From positions 64,001 to 128,000 of IMG/VR virus record IMGVR_UViG_3300005274_000001: DNA of 64,000 bases. One strand, given 5' to 3'. A model generated the notes under the pieces. The model was not told where the DNA came from and made no database searches. It saw nothing but the letters and a program-made list of their open reading frames with translations. This stretch comes from a virus. Below are positions 228 through 26,933 of this stretch, in pieces; the stretch's first letter is position 1; every line of letters starts with the position of its first letter. The position numbers and the translations under genes were made by a program.

Positions 228-962
228 TTAAAAGGTTTCTTTTATTTTTCCCTCCAAAAGAATGCCGTAAAACTTTCTTATTGTAGAGATTTGTGTAATT
301 TCTATGTCCTCTTTTGGCCCGTAAAAATCAGATATTTTTTCAATAAAGGAAAATAGAAACATATTACTAGCAAAAGAAAATAAAAAGGAAAAGATGGGAA
401 CAAAAACGAAGATTTCTTCTCTTTCATAGATTTCAATGATTTTTGTGATTTTTTTAAGTGTGTGTAAATGAATAGTGAATGGTATTGCTGTGTTGTATTT
501 GTAGAGCGTGAATTTTTTTACTTCTTTTTCTCTTGCAAATTCAAAGTCTTCTTCTAGAGATTCTAAAATGTGAAGTTTCGTATACTCATGAAAGTTTTCA
601 AAGAAATTTTTCAGTTTGTCTTTTAAATCTTCTTTTCTTTCTACAATAGAAATAAGTGTATCTTGTTCTGGGCTGCCGCTATAGAAAGCTTTGCTGATAT
701 ATCTCTTATCGTTTTCGTATCTTTCGCTATAGTCATTTCCTTCATATAGTGCGACAAAATTCACTTTTAACTCTAGCCACAAAATATGATCGTTTATAAA
801 GTTTATTAGCGTTTCTTCTATAGATTTGAGAAAACTTTTTTGTGGACAAAAAATTTCTTGTGTTAAGTTTGGTTTCACTTGATTGATTTTTTCTATTGCT
901 TCTTCAAAATTTTTGCTTTCTTTGACTATGTTTATTAGAGCAACTTTTTCTACCTCTTTCAT
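228..962 (-). CDS. Hypothetical protein, EVF-tail array member (ends KETF)
   Basis: ORF track 228-983; ATG at 962 follows TG-C-TATCAT -10 box so is the likelier start. Confidence 0.8.
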   Translation of the reverse strand: MKEVEKVALINIVKESKNFEEAIEKINQVKPNLTQEIFCPQKSFLKSIEETLINFINDHILWLELKVNFVALYEGNDYSERYENDKRYISKAFYSGSPEQDTLISIVERKEDLKDKLKNFFENFHEYTKLHILESLEEDFEFAREKEVKKFTLYKYNTAIPFTIHLHTLKKITKIIEIYEREEIFVFVPIFSFLFSFASNMFLFSFIEKISDFYGPKEDIEITQISTIRKFYGILLEGKIKETF

Positions 963-1053
963 GTTTTGAACATGATAGCACAAAACGCAATGAAGAGATA
1001 AGGAAAGCGTTTACTTGTTTTTGCACAAAATAAAAAACACAAAACATTCTTTC

Positions 1054-1539
1054 TTAATCGTAAACAATCAAAATAGCATTCTTTGATATTCCTAGTTTAA
1101 TAGCTTCATCATATGTGTCAACTACAATATCTGCTGATCTTTTGTATCTAGCATTCATTGTGTCATAAATGACACCTTCAAAGATTCCTAAATCTGAGAT
1201 GATTTTAGCTTTTTTGCCGCAAAGATATTTTCTACGATTTTTGTCAAAGAACAAATCTTGTGAGATTGCTATGATTGTTTCTTTAACTTTCTTTATTGGG
1301 CCACAAGAAGCAATATCTGGAGTACTATCGGTTTGATTTTTTGTTAAGTTATAGAAAGATAATCTTTCTAGCTTATAAGCTTTTACGCCAAAATCTTCTT
1401 TGCTTTTTTCTCTAATGTAAAAATTTTTTGCGATTTCATATTTCTTAGAGATAAGATTTTCTTTCATGTTTTGATAATCATTAATCATTATTGGACCCAA
1501 AAGCAAGAAACTTATAGCCAAAATCCTTTTCATCGGCAC
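1054..1539 (-). CDS. Exported 3D-domain / double-psi beta-barrel protein (lytic transglycosylase-like)
   Basis: N-terminal hydrophobic segment; TDSTPDIASCG, IAISQDL, DTMNARY, SADI three-Asp pattern. Confidence 0.65.
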   Translation of the reverse strand: MPMKRILAISFLLLGPIMINDYQNMKENLISKKYEIAKNFYIREKSKEDFGVKAYKLERLSFYNLTKNQTDSTPDIASCGPIKKVKETIIAISQDLFFDKNRRKYLCGKKAKIISDLGIFEGVIYDTMNARYKRSADIVVDTYDEAIKLGISKNAILIVYD

Positions 1540-1652
1540 CTCCCCAAGGCACTATAGCAGGACAAGGCTTTTTTGGCAAGCCTTAAAAGGCTATAAGTGT
1601 ATCGCCTCTTCCATAGAAAGAAAGCAAAGAAAGCGTTTACTTATAAAGGCAT

Positions 1653-1690
1653 AAGAAGAAAACCTCCCCAAAAGGGGAGGTTTTCTTCTT
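1653..1690 (-). terminator. Intrinsic terminator (potentially bidirectional)
   Basis: Perfect 17-bp inverted repeat AAGAAGAAAACCTCCCC-AAAA-GGGGAGGTTTTCTTCTT just after the 1703 stop. Confidence 0.85.
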
Positions 1691-1702
1691 CAAGTATGTA
1701 GA

Positions 1703-2074
1703 TTAACCTACATACCTGAACACGGGCACTACGCTAGGGTGGGGGACTACCTCAATGATGAGCCTTTTGTTGTCCCAAGAACTGATGATTAGCCCATCAT
1801 CAAGGTAGAGATAAATGTTCTTATCTCCCCTTGGGACGACAAAGAAGTTAGCCCACCTTCCCTGAAACTCTTCAGGGACACCCCTAAGGCTAGGGCCAAT
1901 ATACTCCACCAGGATGCGCCTAATGCTAGAAACCTCCACAAAGGCCCTAACGCTAAGCGCATCCTCGCCTTTCTTGACATTCCCGCCAATCTTCACATCA
2001 GCAGGAATGCCCCACTTCCCAAGGTACCCCTTGACCTCTTCCAGAATCTTGTCCCTAAGCTCTTTCTCCACCAT
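1703..2074 (-). CDS. Hypothetical protein, monocistronic, GC-richer than neighbours
   Basis: Own promoter (2150-2122), AGGAGGAGGT SD, terminator. Confidence 0.85.
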   Translation of the reverse strand: MVEKELRDKILEEVKGYLGKWGIPADVKIGGNVKKGEDALSVRAFVEVSSIRRILVEYIGPSLRGVPEEFQGRWANFFVVPRGDKNIYLYLDDGLIISSWDNKRLIIEVVPHPSVVPVFRYVG

Positions 2075-2282
2075 CTCACACCTCCTCCTAAAGCATACTT
2101 CCGTATGCTTTAGGCACCTTTAGCATAGCACACCCCTCGCCTTGTGTCAAGCCCCCCCCTGCCCTAAGCGTTTCCGTGATGTTTTCGTGCGCTTGAGCGA
2201 GAAAGGCGAGTTGTAAACGCTTTGTGGGAAATAAACGCTGAAACGCTTAATCAGAAAATGGGGTATTTTATTTTTTGGGGGA

Positions 2283-2882
2283 TTAAAAATTTTCTTCTAT
2301 CTCAAAAAGAACGCAAATATAGCTTCTAAAAACGACAATACTTTCTTTTTTATTTGATAGCGAAACTTGGGAGATTAAAGGAAAGTATATTTCTCTTTCT
2401 TTGGCGAAATCTTCTTCTTTTGCCGGATAAAAGAAAATGTTTTTGCTTTCTATTGTTTGATAGGATCTCGTTATTGGGCTGTAAAATTTTTGTTGTACTG
2501 TTTTTATCTTCATGAGAAAAGGCTTTGTTGATTTAATGAGGTATCTCTTTTCTTCATCGTTAACATAGTTTGTATACATGCTTTCAAAAAATACATCTAA
2601 AAATTCTTCTAAGCCGCTTTCTAAATCTTCTTTACTTGGAAACATATCAAAAGTTTTTCTTAGGTAAAAGAAAGGCTTATTTACAGCTTCTAAATGAGAG
2701 AAAGAGTTATCTAATCTTTTTTCCTTTAGCTGAAAAAGCATAGATTTTCTAAAAAGCTTTGGTTTTCTAAGAAAAAGAAGCTCTTTGTTTTGTTCAAGGA
2801 TTTTTTCAACTTCTTCGTAAATCATTGAACTAACCTCTTCTAAATCAAAACTTCTATCTAACAAGACAAGCTCCGTCTGCAT
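2283..2882 (-). CDS. Hypothetical protein, array member (ends EENF), leaderless
   Basis: TTGACA-N17-TAATCT-N6-ATG. Confidence 0.85.
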   Translation of the reverse strand: MQTELVLLDRSFDLEEVSSMIYEEVEKILEQNKELLFLRKPKLFRKSMLFQLKEKRLDNSFSHLEAVNKPFFYLRKTFDMFPSKEDLESGLEEFLDVFFESMYTNYVNDEEKRYLIKSTKPFLMKIKTVQQKFYSPITRSYQTIESKNIFFYPAKEEDFAKEREIYFPLISQVSLSNKKESIVVFRSYICVLFEIEENF

Positions 2883-2988
2883 ACCTTAAGATTAGCAAAG
2901 CCTTACAGCGGTGTCAAGAGTTAAAAGATGAAGATGGCGTTTATTTGTTTTTTCGCAAAAAAGTGAAAAAATCAAAAACAAACACTTC

Positions 2989-3408
2989 TTAATACACATC
3001 AACTAACCTAACATACTCAACTTCACCAAAGAATATATAAACCAAATCTTTTTTGTTGTGAAAACCTAGTATTGGTTTGTGAACCAAAACATTAGAATCT
3101 ACATCCTTTCTCAAATAGTGCACTATTAAGTCTTTATAACTAGCGATTGACATCATATAAGTAACTGTTTGTATTCTAAGACTTTCAAAGTCTTCTTCGC
3201 TTAACATTGTTTCCAAAACAAACATTTTATCTTCAGACCAACGAGTTAACGCATGTTTATAAATGCCAAACTCTTTCTTGTAGGCAGAAAAGGCGTTTTC
3301 AAAGTTTTTATAGTAGCGGATTTTGTAAGTGTAACTCCGCAAAGCATATTTTGGATCATAAAAGGGCTGTACAAAGAAATACTTCTTTTTCTTAATGTCC
3401 AAAATCAC
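2989..3408 (-). CDS. Hypothetical protein, array member (ends DVY)
   Basis: GTG start with AGGAGGT SD. Confidence 0.8.
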   Translation of the reverse strand: MILDIKKKKYFFVQPFYDPKYALRSYTYKIRYYKNFENAFSAYKKEFGIYKHALTRWSEDKMFVLETMLSEEDFESLRIQTVTYMMSIASYKDLIVHYLRKDVDSNVLVHKPILGFHNKKDLVYIFFGEVEYVRLVDVY

Positions 3409-3538
3409 GGCTCACCTCCTAGCCCCCAAGCTAACACAAGGGGTGATAAAAGGCAAGAGGGGGCCTTGGTATGGGGGGGTATTAAAATAGGGAGCCCAAA
3501 AATATGTGGATAGCGTTTACTTAGTTTTGGGTAAAAGA

Positions 3539-3564
3539 AAAACCTCCCCTTTCGGGGAGGTTTT
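3539..3564 (-). terminator. Intrinsic terminator
   Basis: Minus strand AAAACCTCCCC-GAAA-GGGGAGGTTTT followed by T-rich run; same stem as 1653-1690. Confidence 0.85.
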
Positions 3565-3576
3565 GTGTGCTTCTTG

Positions 3577-4372: not shown

Positions 4373-4382
4373 TTTTCACCTC

Positions 4383-4922
4383 TCAGAAAGAAATGTTCTT
4401 TTTCACAATATAAGCGTCTGCATATACTCTAAAAACATTATCTACCTTATCTTTAAACTCTACCTCAATTTTGAAAATCTTTATTGGCACCAAAAGATAA
4501 GCTGGTACTCTTTGTAAAACTTGCAAATCATCACATGCTCTAAAAAGTTCTTTAAAAGACCTAAAGAAAAACGCATGATTCTCTGCCTTTTTTAAATTTT
4601 TCAAGTCTTCTAAGAAGTCATAAACTTCTCTATTTATAAAAGCTTTTCTCACTACGCTAACAGGATAAAGTAGCCAATATATGTCTTTCAAATCCACATT
4701 TTCTACCGAAACAATTTTAAGGTCTTTTAGTTTTAATATTTTTGGTCCTAATCCTTTGTTCAACCTTTGAAAATCTTTTTCTATTTGAGAAAAATCGTCT
4801 TTGAAAACAATATTGTTATGGATAACTGAAAACAATTTTTCTGACATCTTTTGAATATGATCTTTTTCATTAAAGACTGCATATCGTTTATGTAAAACAT
4901 CTAAGAATGGTGGTACTTCCAT
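4383..4922 (-). CDS. Hypothetical protein, array member (ends ISF)
   Basis: ORF, GGGGAGGT SD, upstream TTGACA promoter. Confidence 0.8.
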   Translation of the reverse strand: MEVPPFLDVLHKRYAVFNEKDHIQKMSEKLFSVIHNNIVFKDDFSQIEKDFQRLNKGLGPKILKLKDLKIVSVENVDLKDIYWLLYPVSVVRKAFINREVYDFLEDLKNLKKAENHAFFFRSFKELFRACDDLQVLQRVPAYLLVPIKIFKIEVEFKDKVDNVFRVYADAYIVKKNISF

Positions 4923-5035: not shown

Positions 5036-5707
5036 TCAGAAAATTTCTTTAAAAACCACATAAAAGGTGAGGCCAAATATAGTTTTCCTTCTTATAAAGA
5101 CATTCTCATCTTGTTTGATTTTTGTTAATGAGTAAAACATAGGAATTAATACACAAGTAGAAGCAACCTCTGGTTTTTTAACAGAAATAAACAAGTCTTT
5201 TATAAGATTTTCTCTTGTAGTTGGTCTTAAGTAAAACCATTCATTAAAAATTCGATTTGTTTTAGGGGGTTTGGGGCCTTTTTCAACAATAAAGATTTTC
5301 GTTTTGTCAAAAAGTTTTAACTCCACTTCAAAAGATTTTATTTCACCAAGATACTTTTTGAATAAATCCACCTCCGCTTCTATGGTGTGAAAAAGATTTG
5401 ATTTTACATTACGATGTATCATTTCAAATTCTACATTTTTTGAAACCCTATTAAGTTCAAAATATTCGCTATGAACTCTTTTCTTTAATGTTTCTCTAAA
5501 ACCAACTTTACTCTGCATTATATATTCCCAAAAACAGAAACTTTGACGATCAAATAAAAAGGGTACATATTGTCCTTTTTTAAGTTTTTTAATGAAGCCA
5601 ACGCTTTCTAAATAAAAATCCTTTAGTTGGTGGGGATTGGAGAAAAAGTGATTGACTTTTTTAAACTGCTTCTCTTCTTCAATCGTTCTTTTTTGACGCA
5701 CCCTCAT
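5036..5707 (-). CDS. Hypothetical protein, array member (ends KEIF), leaderless
   Basis: TTGACT-N17-TATGCT-N6-ATG at 5707. Confidence 0.8.
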   Translation of the reverse strand: MRVRQKRTIEEEKQFKKVNHFFSNPHQLKDFYLESVGFIKKLKKGQYVPFLFDRQSFCFWEYIMQSKVGFRETLKKRVHSEYFELNRVSKNVEFEMIHRNVKSNLFHTIEAEVDLFKKYLGEIKSFEVELKLFDKTKIFIVEKGPKPPKTNRIFNEWFYLRPTTRENLIKDLFISVKKPEVASTCVLIPMFYSLTKIKQDENVFIRRKTIFGLTFYVVFKEIF

Positions 5708-5816
5708 AGCCAAAGCATAGCAAAGAAGGCCCCTTCAGTCAAGGTAAGTTCACCGAGGATAAAATATTAGGATAGCGTTTACTTGTTTTTAACGAATTAA
5801 AAAATCAAGAGCTTCA

Positions 5817-6359
5817 TTAGAAAACCTCGTTAAGCCTATAAAAGCAAATCTTTCCTAGCATTGCAGAAACCTCTATTTTTAGAGAGGTTTCTTCAGGTTT
5901 TGTATTTTCAAAGGTTATATAGTAATCGGGAATAAAGATTTGACCTTTTTTAAAATCAAAGATGTTGTCAATAGCGTAAAAGTATTTCTTGCTTACAACT
6001 TTAACTCTTATTTTGTCGCTATAAAGTCCACTTATTCCATTTGATGGAATAGCATAATCTGCTATGTAAAAAGCTATATCGTTTTTAAAAGTTTTTATTT
6101 TTTTTATCGCAAATTTGTCAAGAAGCGATTCAAAAGGTGCAGATCTATAGTGATAAAGATTTTTAACAAATAAAGTTCCCAGATCAAGAATTGTGTCTAT
6201 ATCATATTTGTCTTCCTCAAAAATCATCATTGGAAACCTTTTCTTTTCATTAAAGTCAAACTTATTTCCATTTTGAGTAATATAGTATCTAAACACTACA
6301 AGCGCCTCGTCAATGAAGATTTTCTCAAAAACTTCTGTATCTATCACTTTTCTAATCAT
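5817..6359 (-). CDS. Hypothetical protein, array member (ends NEVF)
   Basis: TGATG stop/start overlap with upstream gene. Confidence 0.85.
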   Translation of the reverse strand: MIRKVIDTEVFEKIFIDEALVVFRYYITQNGNKFDFNEKKRFPMMIFEEDKYDIDTILDLGTLFVKNLYHYRSAPFESLLDKFAIKKIKTFKNDIAFYIADYAIPSNGISGLYSDKIRVKVVSKKYFYAIDNIFDFKKGQIFIPDYYITFENTKPEETSLKIEVSAMLGKICFYRLNEVF

Positions 6360-6889
6360 CAGAACACCTCCTCTATTTCGTATTCATACAAAGTTCCGAT
6401 TAGTCCTTCTATCATTCCAGAAAGTTCATCTGTATCTTTCAAAAGTATTTTCCTTTGCGCAGCAAATAAAGTATCGCCTTCTATTACTTCTTTTAAATTT
6501 TTTATCTCTTCTATTTGAGAAGGCCTAAGATAAACAATAGACATTTTGTAGTCATTAATAACATGTTCGCTATAATCATCAATAAAAACCGAGAAATACT
6601 TTTTTTCAATGGCTTTGCTACAAATAACCTTTGTGCTGAAAGTTTTCAACAAATCTCTCTCAAGAGATAAACACGACAAGTTGTTGTAAAAATACTCAAT
6701 TGATCTGTAAAAAGTTTTGTTGTCTACGAAATCACAAATAATGAAAGATTTGTACAAAGAAAACTCTCCTACTATTTCGTCAGCAAAGCGATTGTTTTTG
6801 CTGGGATAATAGTCTAGTTCTAGATATGCTTTATATCTCTTCAAGATTTTAAAGGACTTTGACTCCAAGAAACCTTCTATTGCTTTCAT
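6359..6889 (-). CDS. Hypothetical protein, array member (ends EEVF); paralog of 7601-8122
   Basis: KAYLELDYYPS...IEGLIGTLY matches KAYMEVTYHPS...IEGLVGTLY; start set to MKAIEG by alignment. Confidence 0.85.
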   Translation of the reverse strand: MKAIEGFLESKSFKILKRYKAYLELDYYPSKNNRFADEIVGEFSLYKSFIICDFVDNKTFYRSIEYFYNNLSCLSLERDLLKTFSTKVICSKAIEKKYFSVFIDDYSEHVINDYKMSIVYLRPSQIEEIKNLKEVIEGDTLFAAQRKILLKDTDELSGMIEGLIGTLYEYEIEEVF

Positions 6890-6933
6890 TCTAACCCCCC
6901 CCTTTCTTAAAAACATAATCATATCAATGAAAC

Positions 6934-7440
6934 TTAAAAAATCTCTTCACGATACTTTACTCTATATATTCTTCCAACAAAACATTTTTCAATGAGTTCC
7001 ACCCTTTTAAACCATCTGCCTTCTCTAAAGGACTCAACAACAGAATCAACAATAAGCAAGTAAACTTCAGGAAAAAGTATTTCTAAATCTTTTATTTTCT
7101 CTCCTATGTGATTTACTTTTGAAATCTTCATTCTATCGTAAACATAAGGTGTGAGAATTCCTCTTTTGTTAGAAATAACCTTTTCATTACCACTACAAGC
7201 TATAACATAGCAATCATACTCAGGGTCAAGAACTTGGTAAAAATAAATGTATTTGCGTCCTATCTTGTCAGTTGTTAGCTTAGATATCTTTTTCAAGTAT
7301 TCCTCTTTGTTCAAAATCTTCACTTCTCTATATACGCCTCTAGAGAAAAAGTAGTTGGCATTTAAGATTTCTAAAAAAGGCAAAAAGTTTTTGAGGCTTT
7401 TGTAATCTTCTAGTTCTTTAATAATGCTTTCCCCCACCAT
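6934..7440 (-). CDS. Hypothetical protein, array member (ends EEIF); paralog of 8777-9283
   Basis: Shared FLPFLEI and GRIYRVKY; both 168 aa. Confidence 0.85.
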   Translation of the reverse strand: MVGESIIKELEDYKSLKNFLPFLEILNANYFFSRGVYREVKILNKEEYLKKISKLTTDKIGRKYIYFYQVLDPEYDCYVIACSGNEKVISNKRGILTPYVYDRMKISKVNHIGEKIKDLEILFPEVYLLIVDSVVESFREGRWFKRVELIEKCFVGRIYRVKYREEIF

Positions 7441-7600: not shown

Positions 7601-8122
7601 TCAAAACACCTCATTAACCTTATATGTATACAAAGTGCCCACTAACCCTTCTATTATTCCTGAATATTCATCAACATCATCTAGAAATACTTTTCTTTTT
7701 GCAACAAATAAAGTATCAGCATCTAGCAAATCTTTCACATCTTTTATTTCTGTTATTTGCTGTGGCCTAAGATAAGCAACACGTACCCATAAACTTTCTT
7801 CAAGAGTTGGATAAATGCTAAATACGATTGAATAATACTCTTTGTTTATTTTTTCCTCACCCAAAAATCCTACATCAAATTCCTTTGAACCACCTCTTTT
7901 AACAGGAACAGATAAGAATCTATTGTAAAAATGTTCAATGCGCTTATAAAAAACTTGGTATTTCTCAGAATAATCACAAGTAATAAGTGTTTTATAGGAT
8001 TCAAAACTAGAAACTATTTCTTTAGCAAAAATATTTCTTTCGCTAGGATGATAAGTAACTTCCATATAAGCCTTCTTTTTGCTAAGAATTTCAAATGGGG
8101 CTGCTTTTAGAAATCTTTCCAT
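7601..8122 (-). CDS. Hypothetical protein, array member (ends NEVF)
   Basis: Paralog of 6359-6889. Confidence 0.85.
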   Translation of the reverse strand: MERFLKAAPFEILSKKKAYMEVTYHPSERNIFAKEIVSSFESYKTLITCDYSEKYQVFYKRIEHFYNRFLSVPVKRGGSKEFDVGFLGEEKINKEYYSIVFSIYPTLEESLWVRVAYLRPQQITEIKDVKDLLDADTLFVAKRKVFLDDVDEYSGIIEGLVGTLYTYKVNEVF

Positions 8123-8137: not shown

Positions 8138-8644
8138 TCAAAACTTGTAATCGTAGGTAATAAGACATCCTAAACCTACAATATTGTGTATCTTTTTTAG
8201 TTTACTGAAACCTGAGTTATTCAAGAAAAACTCATCAAGCTCAACAATTGGAAAAAACATGAAATCTGTAAAATAGTCTTCCAGGTTAGGTTTTATAAAT
8301 GAGAAAATGTTTCGCTCATTTATCTCTTTGAAAATAACTTTTCCATTTTCATCATTAGTTACATAGAGTATTTTTTCTTCTTCGTAAAATTTAACATTTT
8401 TTATTTTTCTGTTGGCATCTTCGTGCAAAGAAGATTTTATTGCACTTTCTACATATATTTCAAAGGAGCTTTTTCCTACATCTGTTTCATATATGTGAGA
8501 GATTGTTGAAAAAACTTCATCTCCGAAATAATAGTTTTTGATTATTACGATAGAAAAATAGCTCGGTCTAATAAGATTACTAATGTTTGCAATCTTTTCT
8601 TTTGTTAGACTAACATAGTCTTTTTTTACACTTACCTCTTTCAT
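8138..8644 (-). CDS. Hypothetical protein, array member (ends YKF)
   Basis: ORF with AGGAGGT SD and TTGACC promoter. Confidence 0.8.
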   Translation of the reverse strand: MKEVSVKKDYVSLTKEKIANISNLIRPSYFSIVIIKNYYFGDEVFSTISHIYETDVGKSSFEIYVESAIKSSLHEDANRKIKNVKFYEEEKILYVTNDENGKVIFKEINERNIFSFIKPNLEDYFTDFMFFPIVELDEFFLNNSGFSKLKKIHNIVGLGCLITYDYKF

Positions 8645-8776: not shown

Positions 8777-9283
8777 TTAAAAAACTTCTTGACAATATTT
8801 GACTCTATAAATTCTTCCAAAAGTAGGTTCTGCAATAAGTTTTACTCTTTTTGTCAACACATTTTCCTTATAGGCGGCAATCCGATAATCAAGTACCAAA
8901 AGGTAAACATTAGGATAAAACTTGCCAAGAAACTCTATTTCTTTTTTAAAGTATTCTATCTCGCTAAGATTAAACCTAGCAAATGTATAAGAAGGAAGGT
9001 GTTTTGCAACATTGGAAAAAACTTTACTTTCTTTATACTCATGAGCCACAAAGTAGTATTTTATTTCGGGATCAAAAACTTGGTGGAAAAAAATGTATTC
9101 TTTGTCTTTTTTGTCAACTGCTAAGCGAGATATCATTCTGAGATAGTCTTCCTTTTCTATCATTCTTATTTCATTAGCAACGCCTTTCTCCGAATAAAAA
9201 TAGCTTGCTTCAATGATCTCCAAAAACGGAAGAAAGGATTTAATATCTTCAAAATCATTTAGATTTTTTATCAGACTTTGCAT
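8777..9283 (-). CDS. Hypothetical protein, array member (ends QEVF)
   Basis: Paralog of 6934-7440. Confidence 0.85.
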   Translation of the reverse strand: MQSLIKNLNDFEDIKSFLPFLEIIEASYFYSEKGVANEIRMIEKEDYLRMISRLAVDKKDKEYIFFHQVFDPEIKYYFVAHEYKESKVFSNVAKHLPSYTFARFNLSEIEYFKKEIEFLGKFYPNVYLLVLDYRIAAYKENVLTKRVKLIAEPTFGRIYRVKYCQEVF

Positions 9284-17636: not shown

Positions 17637-17676
17637 GTCTTTAGTGTATGCTAGCTGCACTTTGTTGTCAAGTGTG

Positions 17677-18222: not shown

Positions 18223-18784
18223 CTTTGCACCTCTCAAAAACAAGTGTTACTCTAAACAGATTTTTTGAGTACAATGTACCTTTTCTGGTTTTTTGTTTGT
18301 GTTTGTAGGAAAAATAAGATATAACTTCAAACTCATTGGCTTCAAAGCGAAATGCTTTAGGCAATCCTTGTACAATGTATTTGTTTATGTTTTCACTAAG
18401 AATATAAAGTGAAAATTCCTCTGTTGGAACTTTCATTTGCAGCAGTTCGTGTTCGTCTACGTATTCCGATGTTGAAGGACATGTCATTTCAAAGTAAAAG
18501 AACTGGTCTTTAACAGACCTTTTGTTTCCTGAGGAATAATCTTTGATGAAGTCTTCAAACATGTCATAAATTTTTCCTCTTTTCTCTAAGACAAACAAAT
18601 TTCTTTTTTCGTCAAAATCAATAATATTTTTCCCTAGCTCTATGTAGCTATCAATAGCGCCAAGTTTCACATACTCGTTTTTGATTATTAAATAAAGATT
18701 TGAAAACAGCTCAATTTTTGCGTTTGCAAGAGTGAAAGGAAAAAAGTTAGAAATTTCAATCGCATGATTTTTTTTCTTCTTCAT
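18212..18784 (-). CDS. Hypothetical protein, array member (ends KDVF)
   Basis: ATG at 18784 with AGGAGGT SD. Confidence 0.8.
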   Translation of the reverse strand: MKKKKNHAIEISNFFPFTLANAKIELFSNLYLIIKNEYVKLGAIDSYIELGKNIIDFDEKRNLFVLEKRGKIYDMFEDFIKDYSSGNKRSVKDQFFYFEMTCPSTSEYVDEHELLQMKVPTEEFSLYILSENINKYIVQGLPKAFRFEANEFEVISYFSYKHKQKTRKGTLYSKNLFRVTLVFERCKDVF

Positions 18785-18825
18785 GCTCACCTCCTCAGAA
18801 GAGATCATCTCAGAAGAGATCATCT

Positions 18826-19344
18826 CTAGAATGGATCATCTCTAACTATACGAATTGTCATTTCTAAATTCGTTTTTAGATCAGTTTCGTAATTACTATC
18901 TACTGAGTCATAAGTTAGGTAAAACGACCAAGAAATCTCATGAAAGGTAGGAACTTCCTTTATTGTTTTCTCAACAATTCTTTTCAAGACCAACTTAATG
19001 TTTAAAAAGTTCAAATCCTCAATTTTGTAGAAAACTGGTTCAAATTGATAAAAATCTCTATCTGGTCGATTTGATAAAGGATCCTTAGTATAAAAGTAGA
19101 CAGAGTAGAAAGAGTAAGCATTAAAACTAAATCTCGCTAGTTCTTCTTTCTGCTTCAAAAGTTTCAAGTGATTAACCTCTTTAGTTATCCTCTTATGAAG
19201 CAAATTGAAAGCATTGATAACTTCAGAGAGATTTGAAGTGTATAGATAGTAGTTTTCATGAGATGATTCGCTGTCTTTGCACCTAGCAAATCTATCATAA
19301 GTAAGCTTTGCGCTATGTACTTTTGCGTAGCTCGTCAACTTCAT
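18826..19344 (-). CDS. Hypothetical protein, array member (ends DDPF)
   Basis: AGGAGGAGGT SD, TTGACA promoter. Confidence 0.85.
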   Translation of the reverse strand: MKLTSYAKVHSAKLTYDRFARCKDSESSHENYYLYTSNLSEVINAFNLLHKRITKEVNHLKLLKQKEELARFSFNAYSFYSVYFYTKDPLSNRPDRDFYQFEPVFYKIEDLNFLNIKLVLKRIVEKTIKEVPTFHEISWSFYLTYDSVDSNYETDLKTNLEMTIRIVRDDPF

Positions 19345-19509: not shown

Positions 19510-20025
19510 CTAGAAAACCTCATTACCCTTCTTGTATTCAAACTTCACTACAAGAAGTTTTTCTATGCTTTCAACTTCTTTGTTTGCTAGTAGTCTTTGT
19601 AGAAGCGTAGGAAACTTGATGATAGCTGCATTAAAGCGAAAATAGTAAGTAATGCTCTCCATTCCTTCTCTTAGAGCTTTTATTGTGATAGGTTTTCCAA
19701 ATAGGTTTATCATTGAAGCGAATTCGTTTTCATTAAAGTTTGCAATTATGTCGTTTTCTTTCTCAATGTAAATCGGCAGAGAAACTAGTTTGTAAGATGA
19801 GAACATTAAATAGGAGAACTCAAAAAGTGATTCTATTTTTACTGATTTGGGCTTTGCAAAAAAATCTTTCTTAAAATCTTGCAAATAGTTTTTAACTTCT
19901 TTACAAAAATCGTAAAAATCAAAGAATTCTTCATAAGAAGATTTATGCACAATTTTCTTACCTCTTTCTTCTTTGTAGATAATTGATATCGAACTTAGAG
20001 AGTAGGGAAGAAAAGCTTTAAGCAT
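19510..20025 (-). CDS. Hypothetical protein, array member (ends NEVF)
   Basis: ATG at 20025 with GAGGAG SD; the track start at 20085 lies inside repeat motif B. Confidence 0.75.
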   Translation of the reverse strand: MLKAFLPYSLSSISIIYKEERGKKIVHKSSYEEFFDFYDFCKEVKNYLQDFKKDFFAKPKSVKIESLFEFSYLMFSSYKLVSLPIYIEKENDIIANFNENEFASMINLFGKPITIKALREGMESITYYFRFNAAIIKFPTLLQRLLANKEVESIEKLLVVKFEYKKGNEVF

Positions 20026-20159
20026 GTTCCTCTCCTCTGCATTACCTTTCTTACTTACTTTAAAGTAACCCAGGGCGTGGTACACTATTACCTAAGTCTG
20101 GAAGATGACTACTAACAACAAAAGATAAACAACTTCTTTTGTTGTAAACACTCACGTCC

Positions 20160-20657
20160 TCAAAACAAGGTATTAAAATCAAATGAAGCTTCTATGCGCA
20201 AATCTTGTGAAAGTGTCGTTTCATTGATTTTTAACTCGACAAAAGATACAAAGAAAACATTGAGTGTTTTTTCTTCTTTAATCGCATATTTATAGCGTTT
20301 ATTTATCTCACGCTGCATTAGGCTAAAAATCTTTTGTTCACTAAATTCTTCTAGACTAAGAAATCTTTTTCTTAAGCGTTTTCTTAGCTCTTTGTAAGGC
20401 ATATCAAAATAGTAATCATTTGCTAATGAGGATACAATTGTAAAGCGTCCTAATTCGAAAAAAGGAGATTTGAAAAATCTTTTTAGAATCTCAAAGTTTC
20501 TTGAAAAATCAGTAAACGCTTTATCAAAGAATTCGCTTCTTTCTTCTTCAAAAAACTCAGTCTTCCTAGTTGAAAGAAGGCTGTCGTTAATCAAATATTC
20601 TTTTAAAAACCTCAGACTTTTAGGTTTTTGTAGTGAAAAAAGCTCTTCGATGTTCAT
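20160..20657 (-). CDS. Hypothetical protein, array member (ends TLF); paralog of 21710-22216
   Basis: MNIEEL/MRIEDL, KRFFKSPFF/KRFVSSKYF, EEFSEQK/EEFSEEK. Confidence 0.85.
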   Translation of the reverse strand: MNIEELFSLQKPKSLRFLKEYLINDSLLSTRKTEFFEEERSEFFDKAFTDFSRNFEILKRFFKSPFFELGRFTIVSSLANDYYFDMPYKELRKRLRKRFLSLEEFSEQKIFSLMQREINKRYKYAIKEEKTLNVFFVSFVELKINETTLSQDLRIEASFDFNTLF

Positions 20658-20665: not shown

Positions 20666-21136
20666 CTAAAAGACTTCTTTTCTTTCTAAATTAGCTTCTA
20701 CTTCTAGAACAACTTTGTCAAGGTTTCTTGTTAGATAATTTAGCTCTATAAAAATTGTTATTGCAGAAACTTCTTTTTCGTTCTTAAGCGCTTTGTTATA
20801 AATTTGACTAATGTTTTCTTCAATAACTCTTAAAACTGTTTTAGGATTAACAAAGGAAGTATTTTTAACACCTATGTCTTCGAATCTAGGTGTTCCAGCT
20901 TTTGTATTTGTAATCAACGCATAGTTAATCTTTAAAATGTCTTGTACGACATCACCTTCAGAATTTTTTACTTGCTTATAATATTTTGAAACAAAACTTC
21001 TAAGGTGCTTATAAAAGTCGTTAGCCTTTTCTTCTTTCAATATTTTTTTAAATGAAAAATTGTTTTCTTCACCTTTTGAGTTTTTAAAGTATTCGAAGTT
21101 AAACTTCGCTTTTGTGAATTCAAAAGGCGCTAGCAT
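20666..21136 (-). CDS. Hypothetical protein, array member (ends KEVF), leaderless
   Basis: TTGACA-N17-TAGCAT-N6-ATG. Confidence 0.85.
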   Translation of the reverse strand: MLAPFEFTKAKFNFEYFKNSKGEENNFSFKKILKEEKANDFYKHLRSFVSKYYKQVKNSEGDVVQDILKINYALITNTKAGTPRFEDIGVKNTSFVNPKTVLRVIEENISQIYNKALKNEKEVSAITIFIELNYLTRNLDKVVLEVEANLERKEVF

Positions 21137-21200: not shown

Positions 21201-21698
21201 CTATAAGATGTCGTAATAGTAGACAACCTCTAGTGATGCGTAGTAATTCCTATGAGGTGTGTAGTAATTCCTATGAGGATGGCCTTTAGTGAGCATTAAA
21301 GAAACGAGAATATAGTCTTTTTTACCAACACCTTTTAATTTTAAAAACTTTGATAATGTTTTATCTCTCTCTTTGATGATTGTATTAAACACCTTTTTAG
21401 GATTTATATCGTATCCCAAAATTTTAATTTTTTCTGCAAAGTCTTCTTGTTTAATATTATTATTAATTGTCAAATAGAAAGGTTCCTCTTCTTTGCTTTC
21501 AAAACTTTTTTCGATGTCGATTGTTTGTTTTATAAACTTTAACATTAATTGATTTGCTCTTTTTTCTAACTCTAACGCTTCAGTATTTTTGTTGAAAGTA
21601 AATTTGTATTTATTCTCTAAAGCTTTTAAGAGTTCTTTTGATGCACCCAAAGGCTCTTGCAAGTAGAAAATTTCGATTTCTCTGAGTTTCAGTTTCAT
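21201..21698 (-). CDS. Hypothetical protein (ends YDIL)
   Basis: ATG at 21698 after GGGGA; internal 21-bp duplication. Confidence 0.75.
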   Translation of the reverse strand: MKLKLREIEIFYLQEPLGASKELLKALENKYKFTFNKNTEALELEKRANQLMLKFIKQTIDIEKSFESKEEEPFYLTINNNIKQEDFAEKIKILGYDINPKKVFNTIIKERDKTLSKFLKLKGVGKKDYILVSLMLTKGHPHRNYYTPHRNYYASLEVVYYYDIL

Positions 21699-21709
21699 CG
21701 CTTCCCCCT

Positions 21710-22216
21710 TCAAAAAACGCCATGTAGAGAGTAGTGCATTTTTAAAAATAGCTTTTTTACAACCAAAGATTTCTTTATCTTTAATGAAACGAAGAATATA
21801 GATTCTACTGATAGATTCTCTTGGTTTATTAAGGCTTTTCTATATTTTTTGTAAAAAGCTTCTTCTACTAAACGCATAAATTTCTCTTCACTAAATTCTT
21901 CAATTCTATAAACTCTTTCAGGAAATCTAGTTAGCAAGCTTTTTTCTTCTCTATAAATATCAAAGTATTCTTCAGAAATATTACATAAAGAAAAAACAAC
22001 AAAATAACCTTTGTAAAAATATTTTGACGACACAAATCTTTTGACAATGTTTAAGTGTTTCAAAAATATGTCGTTAAAATTTTTAATTTCTTCTTCTTGG
22101 GAATTGTAATAATATTTACGCTTTCTAGCTTTAGTAAACACCTGTTTGACGAAGTGTTCAGTTGACACTTCTACGAAAAATATTTCGTGTGTTTTAATTA
22201 AGTCTTCAATGCGCAT
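21710..22216 (-). CDS. Hypothetical protein, array member (ends GVF)
   Basis: Paralog of 20160-20657. Confidence 0.85.
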   Translation of the reverse strand: MRIEDLIKTHEIFFVEVSTEHFVKQVFTKARKRKYYYNSQEEEIKNFNDIFLKHLNIVKRFVSSKYFYKGYFVVFSLCNISEEYFDIYREEKSLLTRFPERVYRIEEFSEEKFMRLVEEAFYKKYRKALINQENLSVESIFFVSLKIKKSLVVKKLFLKMHYSLHGVF

Positions 22217-22222
22217 AGCACC

Positions 22223-22741
22223 TCAAAAACTAGGAAGAACAATGTCATTTATGTCTATAGTGTAAGGAGGTCTTAAAGAGAAAATGTGTTCTATTTCTAC
22301 TAGACAAACTTTTTCGACTTTTTTTATTTCAAAAACTATTCTTGACATTATGGAGATTGGGTAATTGTTTAAGCTTTTAATATTTCTGCTCAGTTCGTTT
22401 AGTGTTTTTTCTGTGTTTTCAATCATTTCGCAAGCTTTTTCTCTGAGAAAAAATGACATATTCTTTTTCTTCTCTGACAGAGTTTCATCATTTTTTAAGC
22501 TTTTTATATCTTTGAAATAAAGCTTTGTCCTTCCTAAAGCATAGCCTCTATAGTTAACAAACATATAAATAGAGATTGTTTTTACATCTTGTTTTAGTGA
22601 TTTTAATACAAAACTGTCAAGCGCTTTAATCAGTTTATCTTTTTCGTTTGCAGAAAAGACGATATTTGAAGTATCTGTGTAGCTAAAGAAAGATTTGTAT
22701 ATTCCCTTTTTCGTAGTTAAATGAAGCTTTTCTAGCCTCAT
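22223..22741 (-). CDS. Hypothetical protein, array member (ends PSF)
   Basis: ATG at 22741 after GGGGGAG; TTGACA-N17-TATGGT promoter. Confidence 0.8.
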   Translation of the reverse strand: MRLEKLHLTTKKGIYKSFFSYTDTSNIVFSANEKDKLIKALDSFVLKSLKQDVKTISIYMFVNYRGYALGRTKLYFKDIKSLKNDETLSEKKKNMSFFLREKACEMIENTEKTLNELSRNIKSLNNYPISIMSRIVFEIKKVEKVCLVEIEHIFSLRPPYTIDINDIVLPSF

Positions 22742-22870
22742 CTCTTCTCCCCCAGAAGACACCATAGAACACAAACCTTAGGCTGTCAAGCGTTGGTACA
22801 CTATTATAAGTCTGGAAGGTGTAGAAGAATGACGCTTGAAGATTGAAGGTCTATATGCTAGTATATAGCT

Positions 22871-23407
22871 ATGCAGACGCAAGGAGGTTGGCTTTTTGAT
22901 AAATCTGTTTTCTTAAGAAGAGCCTTTACACGTTATTTGTATGTTGACAGTAATAATGTGGCTCACAATTACCAAGAAGAAATTGAAAACTTAGAAGGAT
23001 TAGAAAATATTGTTCAATTGGCAAAAGAAAAATTAAAAGAATACGAAAAAGAATTAAGAGAAGCGATTATGTTTGGATTAAAAATTGAAGAAAATTTTCA
23101 ATTAATTGCTATAGCAAACTTTTATAAAGCATCAGTAAGGCATCAGTATTATAAAAAATTAACTCTTAACGAAGCGATGTCTTTTTCTTTTAGAGATGCA
23201 ATCGATGAGGCTATATCTCACTTCTTGAGATTTTGTGAAATTGAAGATTTATCGTTGATTTTAAGTTTAAGTTTTCCTTTTTTATCAGCATATAAATCTC
23301 TATGCAGTTCTGGAAATTACAATTGCTATGCGTTAATTCCTGACCCTCCGCAACTCTTTCACATTATCGCTGAATTTTTGGTTGATAAAAATTTACTTGT
23401 TTTTTAG
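22871..23407 (+). CDS. Hypothetical protein, inverted array member (ends LVF), leaderless
   Basis: TTGAAG-N17-TAGTAT-N6-ATG; weak similarity to 23404-24039. Confidence 0.8.
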   Translation: MQTQGGWLFDKSVFLRRAFTRYLYVDSNNVAHNYQEEIENLEGLENIVQLAKEKLKEYEKELREAIMFGLKIEENFQLIAIANFYKASVRHQYYKKLTLNEAMSFSFRDAIDEAISHFLRFCEIEDLSLILSLSFPFLSAYKSLCSSGNYNCYALIPDPPQLFHIIAEFLVDKNLLVF

Positions 23408-24039
23408 AATGTTTCTTTTATCTCAGCAAACAAGGAGTAGTTGAACAAATTTGGCTTGCTCAAAATTTTTATCATTTCCTTAGTATGTTTGTCAAGTGTT
23501 TTAGCGTTTATCTTTTTTGCACCTACCGAATAAAGATTTGATGAAGTTTCTTCTTCATGAAAATCTAACCAAAAATCAAACTTAAATTGAAAGGAAATTT
23601 TTGACATTAGACCAAACTTTTTAAGAAAATAAAGCGTTGATCTTTCTAATTCTCTTTTGAGGGACAAAGAGGGTATTTTAGAAAGTTTATATTCCTTTTT
23701 CCAATTAAAACCTTTAGCACCTTCATAGAAAGCTAAGGCGTTGAGTTCTAAGACTTCATAAACAATAACCCTTCTTAGCGTGCTTCCACTTTGATTGTTT
23801 ATTAGTTGTTGTATATTATTTAGCCCACTAGTGAACAATTTAACTCTATCTTTGGCGAGATGAAAAAAGTTTTTCACTTCTTCAAACACATCATAATCGT
23901 TTGAAAAGTAGTGAATCAATTTTACTTCATTAAGCTCATTAGTTTCCTTTTTACTTTTTGTCTTATCAAAGTAGCGTATATAGACTGAGCCTCTTGTAAA
24001 GCTTAGTATGTCAAAGGCGCTAAAGGACACTTTAAGCAC
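23404..24039 (-). CDS. Hypothetical protein, array member (ends KETF)
   Basis: 211-aa ORF with TTGACA-N17-TACACT promoter. Confidence 0.8.
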   Translation of the reverse strand: MLKVSFSAFDILSFTRGSVYIRYFDKTKSKKETNELNEVKLIHYFSNDYDVFEEVKNFFHLAKDRVKLFTSGLNNIQQLINNQSGSTLRRVIVYEVLELNALAFYEGAKGFNWKKEYKLSKIPSLSLKRELERSTLYFLKKFGLMSKISFQFKFDFWLDFHEEETSSNLYSVGAKKINAKTLDKHTKEMIKILSKPNLFNYSLFAEIKETF

Positions 24040-24698: not shown

Positions 24699-25199
24699 CT
24701 ACATCGTTTCGTTTTTGAAATATGTTACAAACCAAATAACATATTCGAAGTTTGCAACAATTCTCTGTGTAAGGCAAATTTTCAAAACTTTGTTTTTATA
24801 TATACAATTCGCAAATTGATAGTTTGTAATTATTTCTTCTATTCTTTCAAAGAGAATTTTTGATAGATCTATTTTGCTAGCGTCTTCAATGAATTCTCTA
24901 TTTGAGCCTAAAAGATTCGTCAAATCTTTTATTCTTTTTTTCTTTTTTCTTTGCGCTTCAATTTCAATGCGATTAGTAATTAGGACATCTAAATTTTCTT
25001 TTTTAATTTCTTTGAATGTTTTAGCAAGAAACTTCTTTACAGCTTCAAAGTTCTCTGAAGAAAAGTGTTTTTGTTGGTTGAACATTTCGCTTGTAGAGCC
25101 ATTAAAATCAATTCTTCTATAAATGCTAACTTTATACTGTTGAAGCGAAAATTTTTGATGACCAAAATCCTTGTTGTAAAAAAGAAGTTCTTTTTTCAT
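24699..25199 (-). CDS. Hypothetical protein (ends NETM)
   Basis: ATG at 25199 after GAGGTG. Confidence 0.75.
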   Translation of the reverse strand: MKKELLFYNKDFGHQKFSLQQYKVSIYRRIDFNGSTSEMFNQQKHFSSENFEAVKKFLAKTFKEIKKENLDVLITNRIEIEAQRKKKKRIKDLTNLLGSNREFIEDASKIDLSKILFERIEEIITNYQFANCIYKNKVLKICLTQRIVANFEYVIWFVTYFKNETM

Positions 25200-25207
25200 C
25201 CTACACC

Positions 25208-25630
25208 TCATGTGTAATCTTTGAACATCTCCTCTTCTAACGCTCTTTTAAACTCCTCTTTAGTGAGCGTTGTAATCTTTCCTTCTTCAAAAAAGTGAAT
25301 GCGTTTAAAGTCTAGCTCATTTAATATACTTGCGCAATACAAACAGGGCCTAGTGTTTTTCAGAAGGCTTTTTCTGTAGCCAAAAACAAAAATATCACTA
25401 GGATAGAAACGCTCCTTTTTAGCTTTGTGAAAAAAGTCTAACTCAGCGTGAAGCGCTGCAAAATTAGGATAATCGTATTTAACTTGTTTGCTAACGATGT
25501 ATTTATTTTCGCCAATTAAAATTTCCTTTTTACTAATACCAACACAATACATCTTTACTTTGCCTTTTGGTGTATTCGTTTCTCTTTCCAATAAAATATT
25601 CATTAACCTAAGTAAACGCTCAACCCTCAT
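25208..25630 (-). CDS. Zinc-dependent cytidine/dCMP deaminase-fold protein
   Basis: LHAE and RPCLYC motifs; leaderless start at 25630. Confidence 0.8.
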   Translation of the reverse strand: MRVERLLRLMNILLERETNTPKGKVKMYCVGISKKEILIGENKYIVSKQVKYDYPNFAALHAELDFFHKAKKERFYPSDIFVFGYRKSLLKNTRPCLYCASILNELDFKRIHFFEEGKITTLTKEEFKRALEEEMFKDYT

Positions 25631-25637
25631 GTAAGGC

Positions 25638-25680
25638 ATAATAGCATGAGCTTGACAGGCTGTCAATCGCTTGCTATGAT
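25638..25680. promoter_or_regulatory. Overlapping divergent sigma70-type promoters
   Basis: TTGACA-GGC-TGTCAA palindrome; plus TTGACA-N17-TATGAT, minus TTGACA-N17-TATTAT, both with TG extension. Confidence 0.8.
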
Positions 25681-25700
25681 GAGGAATGCAATGAGGGGAG

Positions 25701-26402
25701 GTGTCTTTCGTGCTAAAGGTTTGCGCATTGGACCTAGGCTCAAGAAGGCAGGTTGCAGTAAAAGGAGTGATTGATGACGATATTCTGAGAATTAAGGACT
25801 ACAAATATACTTACATTGAAGAGGAAAACATAAAAGAGAAAATTAAAAAGCTAAATGAGTTTTTAGAGAAGAATGTTTTAAGCGAGGAGTTTGATTTTGT
25901 GATTTTAGAAAAAAAATTTAAGAGCACAAAAAAGACAAAATTAAAGGTATCGCATTCAGAATACAAAGCTTTTGTAATGCTAAATGAACACGCAAAAAAT
26001 AAACTTTTAAGCGAAGGCATTAATCTGTTGACTGTAGTGTCAAGCAACATTGAAGCTTTTTTTGTAAACTCAAAAAGAAGCAACTACTTTGTTCCTGGTT
26101 GGAAGCAAGTTCTTACTGGTATTAATAAACCTTCAGATAAGGACATTGAAGAAGCATTAAAAACTTTGTTAAAAGAAGGAAAAATTGTATACGAAGCAAA
26201 CACAAGTGAACTGACGCAAAATAAAAAAAGGTTTTATGTAGACTTTAATGACGCTGTAGGAATGCTTTATGCGTATATTCTAAGGCCAGAAATTTTTGTT
26301 TTAGAGGAGGCACCAAAAGAAGATGATGACAACAAAAATGACTTCTACGATGAGATTACAAAAGAGCTGCTAGAAAAATTTCTTGGCCCAATAGTGTCTT
26401 GA
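25701..26402 (+). CDS. RuvC/RNase H-fold nuclease, probable Holliday junction resolvase
   Basis: ALDLGSR, FVILE, W-K, and DFNDAVGM acidic catalytic pattern. Confidence 0.65.
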   Translation: MSFVLKVCALDLGSRRQVAVKGVIDDDILRIKDYKYTYIEEENIKEKIKKLNEFLEKNVLSEEFDFVILEKKFKSTKKTKLKVSHSEYKAFVMLNEHAKNKLLSEGINLLTVVSSNIEAFFVNSKRSNYFVPGWKQVLTGINKPSDKDIEEALKTLLKEGKIVYEANTSELTQNKKRFYVDFNDAVGMLYAYILRPEIFVLEEAPKEDDDNKNDFYDEITKELLEKFLGPIVS

Positions 26403-26933
26403 GTGAAATAATACTCTTTTTGTGTTTAATGAGATTAAGAATTTTTTTGTGTTTCTTTTTATCTCATTGCTAATAACGAAAGCGTTTATTTCTTTGTAGT
26501 ACTTATAAGCGAACCTAGCGTCCTCATTAAAGTCTGCAACAAAAAGAATTAAGTCTTCTAGGTAATAAGAATTCACGATGTAGTTTTTTATTGTCTTGTA
26601 ATCTTCCTTTGTCTTTATGTAATAGAAGTCAAAAACTTCTTCAACTTCAATGAATTTTTTATACGCCTTATACAAAGGCAAAGGATTTTGCAGGAAGTAA
26701 AAAAACAAATATCTAGAAAAAGTTTCTAAATAGTTAGTACTAAAACGATATCTTTCAAACTCTGAAATCCTTTTTATAGACTTGTATTGTTTAACAAAAG
26801 CGAACTCTCTTAGTATCTTTTTTCTTATAGGACTTATGTCAAAGATAATCCTGTCAATAAAGTAAACGCTTCGAGCGTTTCTCTTAAAAGCTTCGCTTGC
26901 TCTTAGAATTGGAAACGATAGATTAGTGTTCAC
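26370..26933 (-). CDS. Hypothetical protein (ends KFF)
   Basis: 187-aa ORF, TG-C-TATAGT upstream. Confidence 0.7.
   Translation of the reverse strand: MNTNLSFPILRASEAFKRNARSVYFIDRIIFDISPIRKKILREFAFVKQYKSIKRISEFERYRFSTNYLETFSRYLFFYFLQNPLPLYKAYKKFIEVEEVFDFYYIKTKEDYKTIKNYIVNSYYLEDLILFVADFNEDARFAYKYYKEINAFVISNEIKRNTKKFLISLNTKRVLFHSRHYWAKKFF

Follow-up and report, generated by a model that had tools for sequence, protein, structure and literature searches.

Why should some 30 small phage proteins that can scarcely be aligned with one another end in the same residue? The question is raised by a 64-kb stretch of viral DNA (hereafter the window), bases 64001-128000 of a 157,225-bp phage genome with terminal repeats (IMG/VR record IMGVR_UViG_3300005274_000001). 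Window positions 228-26933 hold densely packed open reading frames (ORFs), mostly leftward, which account for about 27 kb of the 157-kb genome (~1/6) and some 30 genes. The DNA of this region is 79-81% identical to that of the Thermus phages TMA and phiYS40, its guanine-plus-cytosine (GC) content is ~32%, and the source is a phiYS40/TMA-type Thermus myophage. A first-pass annotation, made from the letters and their translations, had described the block as an array of divergent orphan proteins that share a C-terminal [E/D]-x-F tag and had proposed that the tag is a docking signal. We examined the terminal Phe for enrichment and conservation, the array proteins for a common fold, and the surrounding genes for a candidate reader of the tail.

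Terminal phenylalanine and the level of selection

Non-overlapping ORFs of at least 90-100 aa were counted in the block (n = 41) and in the rest of the genome (n = 116). Phe is the last residue in 27/41 ORFs of the block versus 8/116 elsewhere (Fisher p = 2e-13). Eighteen of the block's tails read [E/D]-x-F and 10 read EVF, and both the [ED]xF and the [ED][VI]F patterns are enriched relative to the rest of the genome (p = 1e-10 and 6e-8, respectively). The tail counts and the near misses (DVY, EVI, DIL and ETM) were obtained by an independent ORF extraction and reproduce those first reported; the comparison with the rest of the genome, suggested at that stage as a check, supports them. Relative to the 8.5% Phe content of the array proteins, the binomial probability of so many terminal Phe residues is ~1e-19. 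The signal is positional, because the internal tripeptide [ED][VI]F is not enriched (18 seen versus 13 expected).

The C-terminal profile of the 27 Phe-ending proteins has Val at -1 in 13/27 cases and Pro in one, Glu or Asp at -2 in 18/27, and polar residues at -3, with Lys in 7/27. Positions -4, -6, -8 and -10 are mostly hydrophobic and Gly is frequent at -11, which bears out the alternating hydrophobic strand that had been noticed before the tag. Positions -4, -6 and -8, the buried face, accept any hydrophobic residue, unlike the Phe-specific position 0, where 27 Phe residues stand against 1 Tyr, 1 Ile, 1 Met and 3 Leu in other array ORFs. Among the array ORFs that do not end in Phe, only those ending DVY, EVI, ETM and DIL resemble the tag. 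The stop codon directly follows Phe in 27 genes despite lengths that range from 130 to 251 aa. Loss of the stop would append 0-50 residues, and ~3 genes resemble tail extensions (TF-PYV, VF-RYVG and EVF-KDYT). Such a fixed stop position suggests that extension is selected against, which would be the expectation for a free carboxylate of functional importance.

The terminal Phe is also conserved between phages. It is kept in TMA, phiYS40 and the metagenomic relatives L005 and L006 (~58% identical), even at protein identities of 39-60%. Among orthologue pairs below 90% identity, 52/53 keep the terminal Phe, as compared to 20/33 for the last residue of ORFs with other ends. Over orthologue and paralogue pairs together, it is kept in 73/78 (94%), versus 858/1200 (71%) for internal Phe (p = 3e-6). 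The gene content of the array differs between sister phages.

A nucleotide-level cause would make the tail a by-product, either because GAG GTG TTT and the stop are selected as a Shine-Dalgarno (SD) sequence or because the 3' end is a recombining DNA cassette. Consistent with such a cause, GAG GTG also provides the downstream gene's SD at 6359, 14467 and 15003 (gaps of -1, -4 and -1), as first noted; GAG is slightly over-used at -2 (7/15 versus 26% in gene bodies); and a C-terminal module is common to two neighboring families. However, spacers of 69-443 nt with their own signals lie downstream of at least 10 tagged genes. The tag is encoded by GAA or GAG, by GTT, GTG or GTC, and by TTT or TTC, it is followed by all three stop codons, and the sequences on both sides differ between genes. 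Synonymous TTT/TTC differences are found in 51/152 pairs with the residue unchanged. Because the tag codons vary and long spacers (>100 nt) follow many tagged genes, selection acts on the peptide and not on the SD site, which agrees with the initial interpretation. The nucleotide-level explanation is largely refuted, and we give it almost no weight.

The shared C-terminal module spans 32 residues, ends EEVFKDYT and joins two adjoining, otherwise unrelated families (hhalign probability 97.7) at window 24699-25666 and L006:4147-4719; one carrier is the dCMP-deaminase-like ORF 25208-25666. This sequence similarity suggests that 3' ends may have been exchanged among array genes. Past the stop of ORF 2989-3408, which ends VDVY, the next three codons are GAA GTG TTT (E-V-F). 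Several database homologues of the 6359-6922 protein (P0019-P0025) appear to extend beyond EVF by WWLEKW. This peptide is the window's TGA TGA TTA GAA AAG TGA decoded with TGA as Trp, so the extension is a gene-calling artefact on low-GC contigs and not a real extension.

Mimicry of the single-stranded DNA-binding protein (SSB) tail, in which the acidic residue and terminal Phe would compete for host SSB-tip binders, was also among the early proposals. SSB tips read D-D-D-[I/L]-P-F and close a long disordered linker. The SSB C-terminus (SSB-Ct; D-D-D-I-P-F) and the tails of T7 gp2.5 and gp4 resemble the tails of the phiYS40 lineage in their invariant terminal Phe carboxylate and in the acidic residues before it, and in those systems one peptide is a common handle for replisome partners. 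In the array, the free carboxylate of a terminal Phe is present in 27 ORFs, 18 of which have an acidic residue at -2, and one family ends DDPF or NDPF. The SSB and T7 tails are strongly acidic, disordered extensions of considerable length, and SSB has Pro at -1, whereas the array tail comprises only 3-4 residues beyond a β-strand (4 beyond strand 141-152 in the model of the 20666-21136 protein), no long disordered linker precedes it, and in most members the alternating pattern of the strand extends to -4. Val is the usual residue at -1 and Pro occurs only in 18826-19344, Lys is frequent at -3, some 30 different proteins carry the tail instead of one, and related lineages have basic tails. With the Pro and the acidic run missing in all but one family, SSB mimicry is very improbable. 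A search of the phage genome for SSB (PF00436) found none.

A predicted common fold

Sequence comparison joins few of the array genes. Searches by blastp, by hhalign (820 cluster pairs), with decoyed hidden Markov models (HMMs) and with an iterated merged profile returned small subfamilies only (14467/15003/15600, 17677/18212, 6359/7601, 6934/8777 and 20160/21710). With reversed-sequence decoys, the HMM searches gave 28 forward versus 8 reversed family pairs at ≥8 bits, a mild excess to which the tail itself may have given rise. Among 1.84 billion representative proteins, a profile search returned the query's own cluster only, and a search of the ESM Atlas gave no usable lead. On the array, Pfam yielded nothing but a weak dCMP-deaminase-like match for 25208-25666, and PHROGs yielded tiny self-families only. 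The "glycosyltransferase" label of phrog_17351 (TMA_110/111 and YS40_112-114) has no Pfam support and was set aside.

Structure prediction was more informative. AlphaFold was run on the 20666-21136 protein with 19 homologues, and this is the sole family with a confident model (predicted local distance difference test (pLDDT) 80; predicted template modeling score (pTM) 0.80); a model of the 6359-6922 protein from 12 sequences resembled it in topology but had a pLDDT of 40 and was not used. The model consists of strands 5-17 and 27-34, helix 35-58, strands 65-76 and 84-93, helix 98-118, and strands 123-135 and 141-152. The last strand stops at -4 and the final K-E-V-F is coil, with mean pLDDT falling from 93 to 67 at residues 151-156. 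In the PDB, the Foldseek search with this model was empty and no convincing relative was found. The best VIA-align matches, kinesin motor cores (Z 8.2), are within the tool's stated noise range and were therefore read as a generic α/β sandwich.

In contrast to the sequence searches, Foldseek comparison of the model with BFVD gave 12 matches at E ≤ 1e-3 (probability 1.00, template modeling (TM) score 0.48-0.67, 10-22% identity), all of 130-185 aa. Among them are YS40_114, YS40_116, YS40_120, YS40_122, TMA_110 and TMA_114, and these six represent the families of window ORFs 15003, 16559, 18826, 14467 and 17130 and one family absent here. This mapping was inferred from length and accession order and checked against GenBank order, and both sides of the comparison are predicted models. 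These data point to one predicted α+β fold in at least six sequence-unrelated array families, the query's own included. The tail is the only sequence feature that they have in common, since the families are joined by the Foldseek fold and not by hhalign, HMM searches or iteration. The first-pass annotation had supposed a diversified family and suggested structure prediction as a test of it, and the predicted fold supports this supposition. It had also held that a terminal Phe buried as the last strand of one common fold would speak against a docking signal; the common-fold half of that statement is what the models predict.

An alternating hydrophobic last strand with a near-invariant terminal Phe is also a property of the outer-membrane β-signal, whose Phe has a structural role and also serves in recognition: BAM reads it, and the DegS PDZ domain does so in the form Y-x-F. 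Unlike outer-membrane β-barrel proteins, the Phe-ending array proteins have no signal peptide or membrane segment, and they are predicted to be α+β sandwiches and not barrels. Their N-termini are polar, with a maximal 19-residue hydropathy of ≤1.4 except in 228-983 (1.95). Periplasmic readers of the tail (BAM and the PDZ domains of DegS or Prc) are unlikely because the array proteins lack signal peptides. Two array ORFs that do not end in Phe, 1054-1539 and 3965-4372, are unlike the rest: one has a hydrophobic N-terminus resembling a signal or lipoprotein sequence, and the other resembles a small membrane protein (maximal 19-residue hydropathy 2.76).

The MoxR/vWA trio and possible readers of the tail

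A conserved set of genes is embedded in the array. The 11208-12251 ATPase is of the AAA/AAA_5 type, matching PF00004 (36.3 bits) and PF07728 (23.0 bits), both above cut-offs. The 9532-11190 protein scores 25.6 bits against the 26.4-bit cut-off of Pfam DUF2201 and 16.1 against the gathering score of 23.2 of DUF2201_N; most of its homologues carry PF09967 in precomputed tables, and those at 27-37% identity keep the HExxH motif and the DTSGS sequence of the metal ion-dependent adhesion site (MIDAS). Over 13 homologues, down to 27% identity, the MIDAS residues D426-S430 are invariant and H102, E103 and H106 nearly so. Three phage lineages that are deeply diverged share a conserved trio: the MoxR ATPase (46-49% identity between lineages), the HExxH-vWA(MIDAS) protein, whose linker is rich in Q/N or S/N (28-33%), and a third protein of 250-296 aa (31-36%).

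In the two distant lineages, represented by contigs L009 (23 kb) and L013 (12 kb), the trio is likewise flanked by arrays of 150-190-aa ORFs. In the L009 array, 18/25 ORFs end in Phe and 4 in Leu, with the consensus K-x-I-x-[K/R]-[Y/F]-F, and Phe and Leu alternate among clear paralogues. In the L013 array, 10/10 end in Ile or Leu, three of them in YYGKVL. Comparison of the L009 and L013 paralogue profiles with the window families by hhalign found no link, and two further contigs with distant vWA homologues, L014 and L015, were too short to inform. Because the L009 tails read [K/R]-[Y/F]-F and those of L013 end in Leu or Ile, the acidic -2 is a trait of the phiYS40 lineage, and what is deeply shared is that the chain ends in a large hydrophobic residue, most often Phe. 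The acidic part of the tag, originally taken to belong to the shared signal, is thus not deep.

Our favored reading, held tentatively and with slightly less than even confidence, is that the terminal Phe and its free carboxylate form a contact peptide used in trans. Most genes of the block would be tandem, extremely diverged copies of one α+β domain of ~150-200 aa, in the order β-hairpin, helix, β-hairpin, helix, β-hairpin, with the last strand followed by a 3-4-residue tail, [K/E/N]-[E/D]-[V/I]-F-COOH. This short tail would be exposed at the end of the sheet and would fit a hydrophobic pocket and a carboxylate-binding site on a common partner, and many differing protein bodies could thereby be served by one partner. 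Recognition in trans is favored because position 0 is specific for Phe while core positions drift among hydrophobic residues, because the terminal Phe is better kept than internal Phe, because the stop stays directly after Phe through extreme divergence, and because the model leaves the tail unstructured. The trio-flanking arrays of the two distant lineages, each with its own flavor of hydrophobic C-terminus, are further points in its favor, as is the finding that the tail is no general Thermus-phage trait: it is absent from phiLo, an unrelated Thermus myophage (3/59 ORFs).

The same residue could instead be a structural anchor in cis, an explanation that we consider rather unlikely, though far from negligible. 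The genes would share one ancestral domain with a core Phe at the close of its last β-strand, and there would be no reader in trans; the strand would simply be completed by E/D (or K/R) at -2 and a β-former at -1, and the Phe would staple the C-terminus to the helix layer, which would be helpful at 65-75 °C. A single predicted fold over at least six sequence-unrelated families is expected from such an anchor. Several observations support it and weigh, at the same time, against recognition in trans. The tail is very short, a core strand lies immediately before it, and the Phe is in phase with the hydrophobic, buried face (-4, -6 and -8). A family with the same fold keeps the Phe internally (TF-PYV), where it has no free carboxylate. 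The distant arrays end in Phe, Leu or Ile, with a basic instead of an acidic -2; the interchange of Phe and Leu among L009 paralogues and the Ile/Leu ends of L013 fit generic hydrophobic packing, and the change at -2 argues that no conserved electrostatic reader of that position exists. Two further points count against recognition in trans. Some paralogues of 21201-21713 have no tail at all, and, with a confident model for only one family, the case for an exposed tail comes from one drop in pLDDT at a chain end, where drops of this kind are common. However, a structural anchor does not readily account for a terminal Phe that is kept significantly better than internal Phe and is far more residue-specific than other core positions, or for a C-terminus that is not ragged despite extreme divergence. 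Moreover, AlphaFold gives the last four residues as coil, and the charged -2 and hydrophobic -1 break the strand alternation.

If the tail is recognized in trans, the foremost candidate reader encoded by the phage is the MoxR/metallopeptidase-vWA pair, on account of its co-conservation with such arrays. The conserved link in three lineages keeps this candidate of the first-pass annotation alive, though the synteny could be simple common descent. We regard this machine as a possible partner, though an unlikely one. vWA/MIDAS domains, such as those of integrin I-domains, CbbO-Rubisco and midasin, bind an acidic group of the client, and integrin αIIbβ3 reads the fibrinogen γ C-terminal AGDV-COOH; by analogy only, a MIDAS is a chemically plausible reader of a C-terminal carboxylate that lies next to a hydrophobic side chain. 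Group 2.2 jumbo phages are known to encode a MoxR AAA+ ATPase together with a vWA cochaperone that carries a metallopeptidase as an N-terminal fusion; a role in virion assembly was proposed for the pair and no client array mentioned (PMC7824862). The architecture at 9532-12251 is the same (AAA ATPase; HExxH plus vWA with MIDAS). Here, in contrast to the jumbo-phage pair, it is embedded in, and co-conserved with, arrays of Phe- or Leu-ending proteins. As partners, a host hub or protease is doubtful, and a neighboring subunit of the same family is more doubtful still.

A non-polar end could also be a degron that targets the proteins for degradation at a set time, either by a host protease of the FtsH, Lon or ClpXP type or by the MoxR ATPase acting with the phage HExxH protein. 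Non-polar C-termini are degradation signals in bacteria, as in the ssrA tag, a property reportedly described by Parsell, Silber and Sauer in 1990, and an AAA+ ATPase and a conserved HExxH protein lie within the array. The tail is nevertheless unlike the known LAA-type degron, as no array ORF ends in L-A-A or A-A. Removal through the tail, which we consider improbable, is in any case a special case of recognition in trans and no true alternative.

Recognition in trans by the embedded machine could be extended to a specific, if doubtful, scheme in which the array proteins form a library of exchangeable clients or adaptors. Each divergent α+β body would bind a different host target, the Phe-COOH tail would dock on the HExxH-vWA protein, at its MIDAS metal and a pocket beside it, and the MoxR ATPase and zincin domain would remodel or cleave what the body had captured. 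The flavor of the tail (EVF, KYF or KVL) would then co-evolve with the vWA protein in each phage lineage.

Layout of the array and its significance

The ORFs considered are collected in the table. We read the block as a leftward, multi-promoter accessory region which, to judge by its position, is presumably expressed early. Perfect TTGACA boxes lie in spacers, on the coding strand, at 25666, 22789, 21171, 19390, 17671 and 16551, and the total count of promoter-like sites in the block is no higher than in shuffled sequence. The motif AAACAAGTAAACGC recurs in spacers after tagged genes (window 1007-14041, minus strand), with 12 matches at ≤2 mismatches versus 1 expected by chance and 10/12 on the coding strand; a regulatory repeat that serves the left half of the array is the probable interpretation.

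Table. Tagged, near-miss and embedded ORFs of the block, with the loci of the trio (window coordinates unless a contig is named).
Feature	Position	Strand	Remarks
251 aa, ends KETF	228..983	-	TMA orthologue 94% identical, same tail
199 aa, ends EENF	2283..2882	-	
139 aa, ends VDVY (near miss)	2989..3408	-	Two phiYS40 paralogues end HEVF and REVF; TMA orthologue is a weak BFVD fold match
179 aa, ends NISF	4383..4922	-	
225 aa, ends KEIF	5036..5713	-	No orthologue in TMA or phiYS40
180 aa, ends NEVF	5817..6359	-	Followed by 103-nt spacer
187 aa, ends EEVF	6359..6922	-	GAG GTG is SD of next gene; paralogue 7601-8122
168 aa, ends EEIF	6934..7440	-	Paralogue 8777-9283
173 aa, ends NEVF	7601..8122	-	Followed by 160-nt spacer
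168 aa, ends DYKF	8138..8644	-	
168 aa, ends QEVF (GAA GTT TTT)	8777..9283	-	Followed by 132-nt spacer
HExxH-vWA protein, 552 aa, untagged	9532..11190	-	HEILH zincin-like domain, Q/N-rich linker, vWA-like domain with MIDAS DTSGS
MoxR-type AAA+ ATPase, 347 aa, untagged	11208..12251	-	
231 aa, ends EEVF	12383..13078	-	
250 aa, ends MSLF	13148..13900	-	Third conserved partner of MoxR/vWA; L009 homologue ends SRFF, L013 homologue VDLI
Trio loci	window 9532-13900; L009:7702-11590; L013:6856-12060		
130 aa, ends RDLF	14078..14470	-	
178 aa, ends EEVI (near miss)	14467..15003	-	Sequence family with 15003-15515 and 15600-16115; TMA orthologue is a BFVD fold match
170 aa, ends KEVF	15003..15515	-	phiYS40 orthologue YS40_114 is a BFVD fold match
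171 aa, ends EKFF	15600..16115	-	
158 aa, ends SEVF	16559..17035	-	Orthologue YS40_116 is a BFVD fold match
176 aa, ends RTF-PYV (Phe kept, not terminal)	17130..17660	-	Orthologue TMA_114 is a BFVD fold match
188 aa, ends EEVF	17677..18243	-	Orthologues at 50% identity end KDVF
203 aa, ends KDVF	18212..18823	-	
172 aa, ends DDPF	18826..19344	-	Orthologue YS40_122 (NDPF) is a BFVD fold match
191 aa, ends NEVF	19510..20085	-	
165 aa, ends NTLF	20160..20657	-	Paralogue 21710-22216
156 aa, ends KEVF	20666..21136	-	Modeled member: predicted hairpin, helix, hairpin, helix, hairpin, 4-residue coil tail
170 aa, ends YDIL (near miss)	21201..21713	-	Orthologues end otherwise
168 aa, ends HGVF	21710..22216	-	
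183 aa, ends LPSF	22223..22774	-	
178 aa, ends LLVF	22871..23407	+	Opposite strand; conserved in four relatives
211 aa, ends KETF	23404..24039	-	
170 aa, ends NETM (near miss)	24699..25211	-	
187 aa, ends KKFF	26370..26933	-	
212 aa, ends VEFF	55278..55916	-	Outlying, outside array

Far outside the array, at genome 33055-33570 (L007:1056-1571, minus strand), a lone 171-aa ORF ends IEVF; it forms its own tiny PHROG with no known function and may be a stray member of the array family. IS605-type TnpB/OrfB genes interrupt the arrays of relatives at differing sites (L001:30651-32673 in TMA, L005:6388-7530 and L006:13581-14723) and are absent from the window's array. L006 (GCA_038735885.1, contig JAVYNF010000003.1) is a 33-kb phiYS40-like phage contig in a bin labeled Candidatus Aenigmatarchaeota, a label that is probably a binning error.

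As a genomic arrangement, the array resembles the host-takeover module of SPO1 and the multigene families (MGFs) of African swine fever virus (ASFV), which likewise consist of tandem, fast-diverging small genes with variable copy number and several promoters of their own. We know of no described C-terminal residue common to either of these. In the array, by contrast, the copies are beyond sequence recognition, yet several families have one predicted fold and most keep the last residue.

Full-text literature searches for the array family or its terminal Phe found no description, the original phiYS40 and TMA genome papers lying outside that search. These ~27 kb, with some 30 genes, have been unannotated since those genomes were published. 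With most of the block apparently built on one fold and one invariant terminal residue, the 30 orphans can be approached as one tractable problem. Should the Phe prove to be a structural staple and nothing more, the array would still be a striking example of divergence: its paralogues can no longer be recognized by sequence, although several families retain the predicted fold and the last residue is kept in most. If the tail is read in trans, it would constitute a phage-wide addressing system that could be used to fish out its partner, and it might provide a heat-stable tag. The array proteins would then also be the first candidate clients for the widespread, poorly understood MoxR/metallopeptidase-vWA pair of phages.

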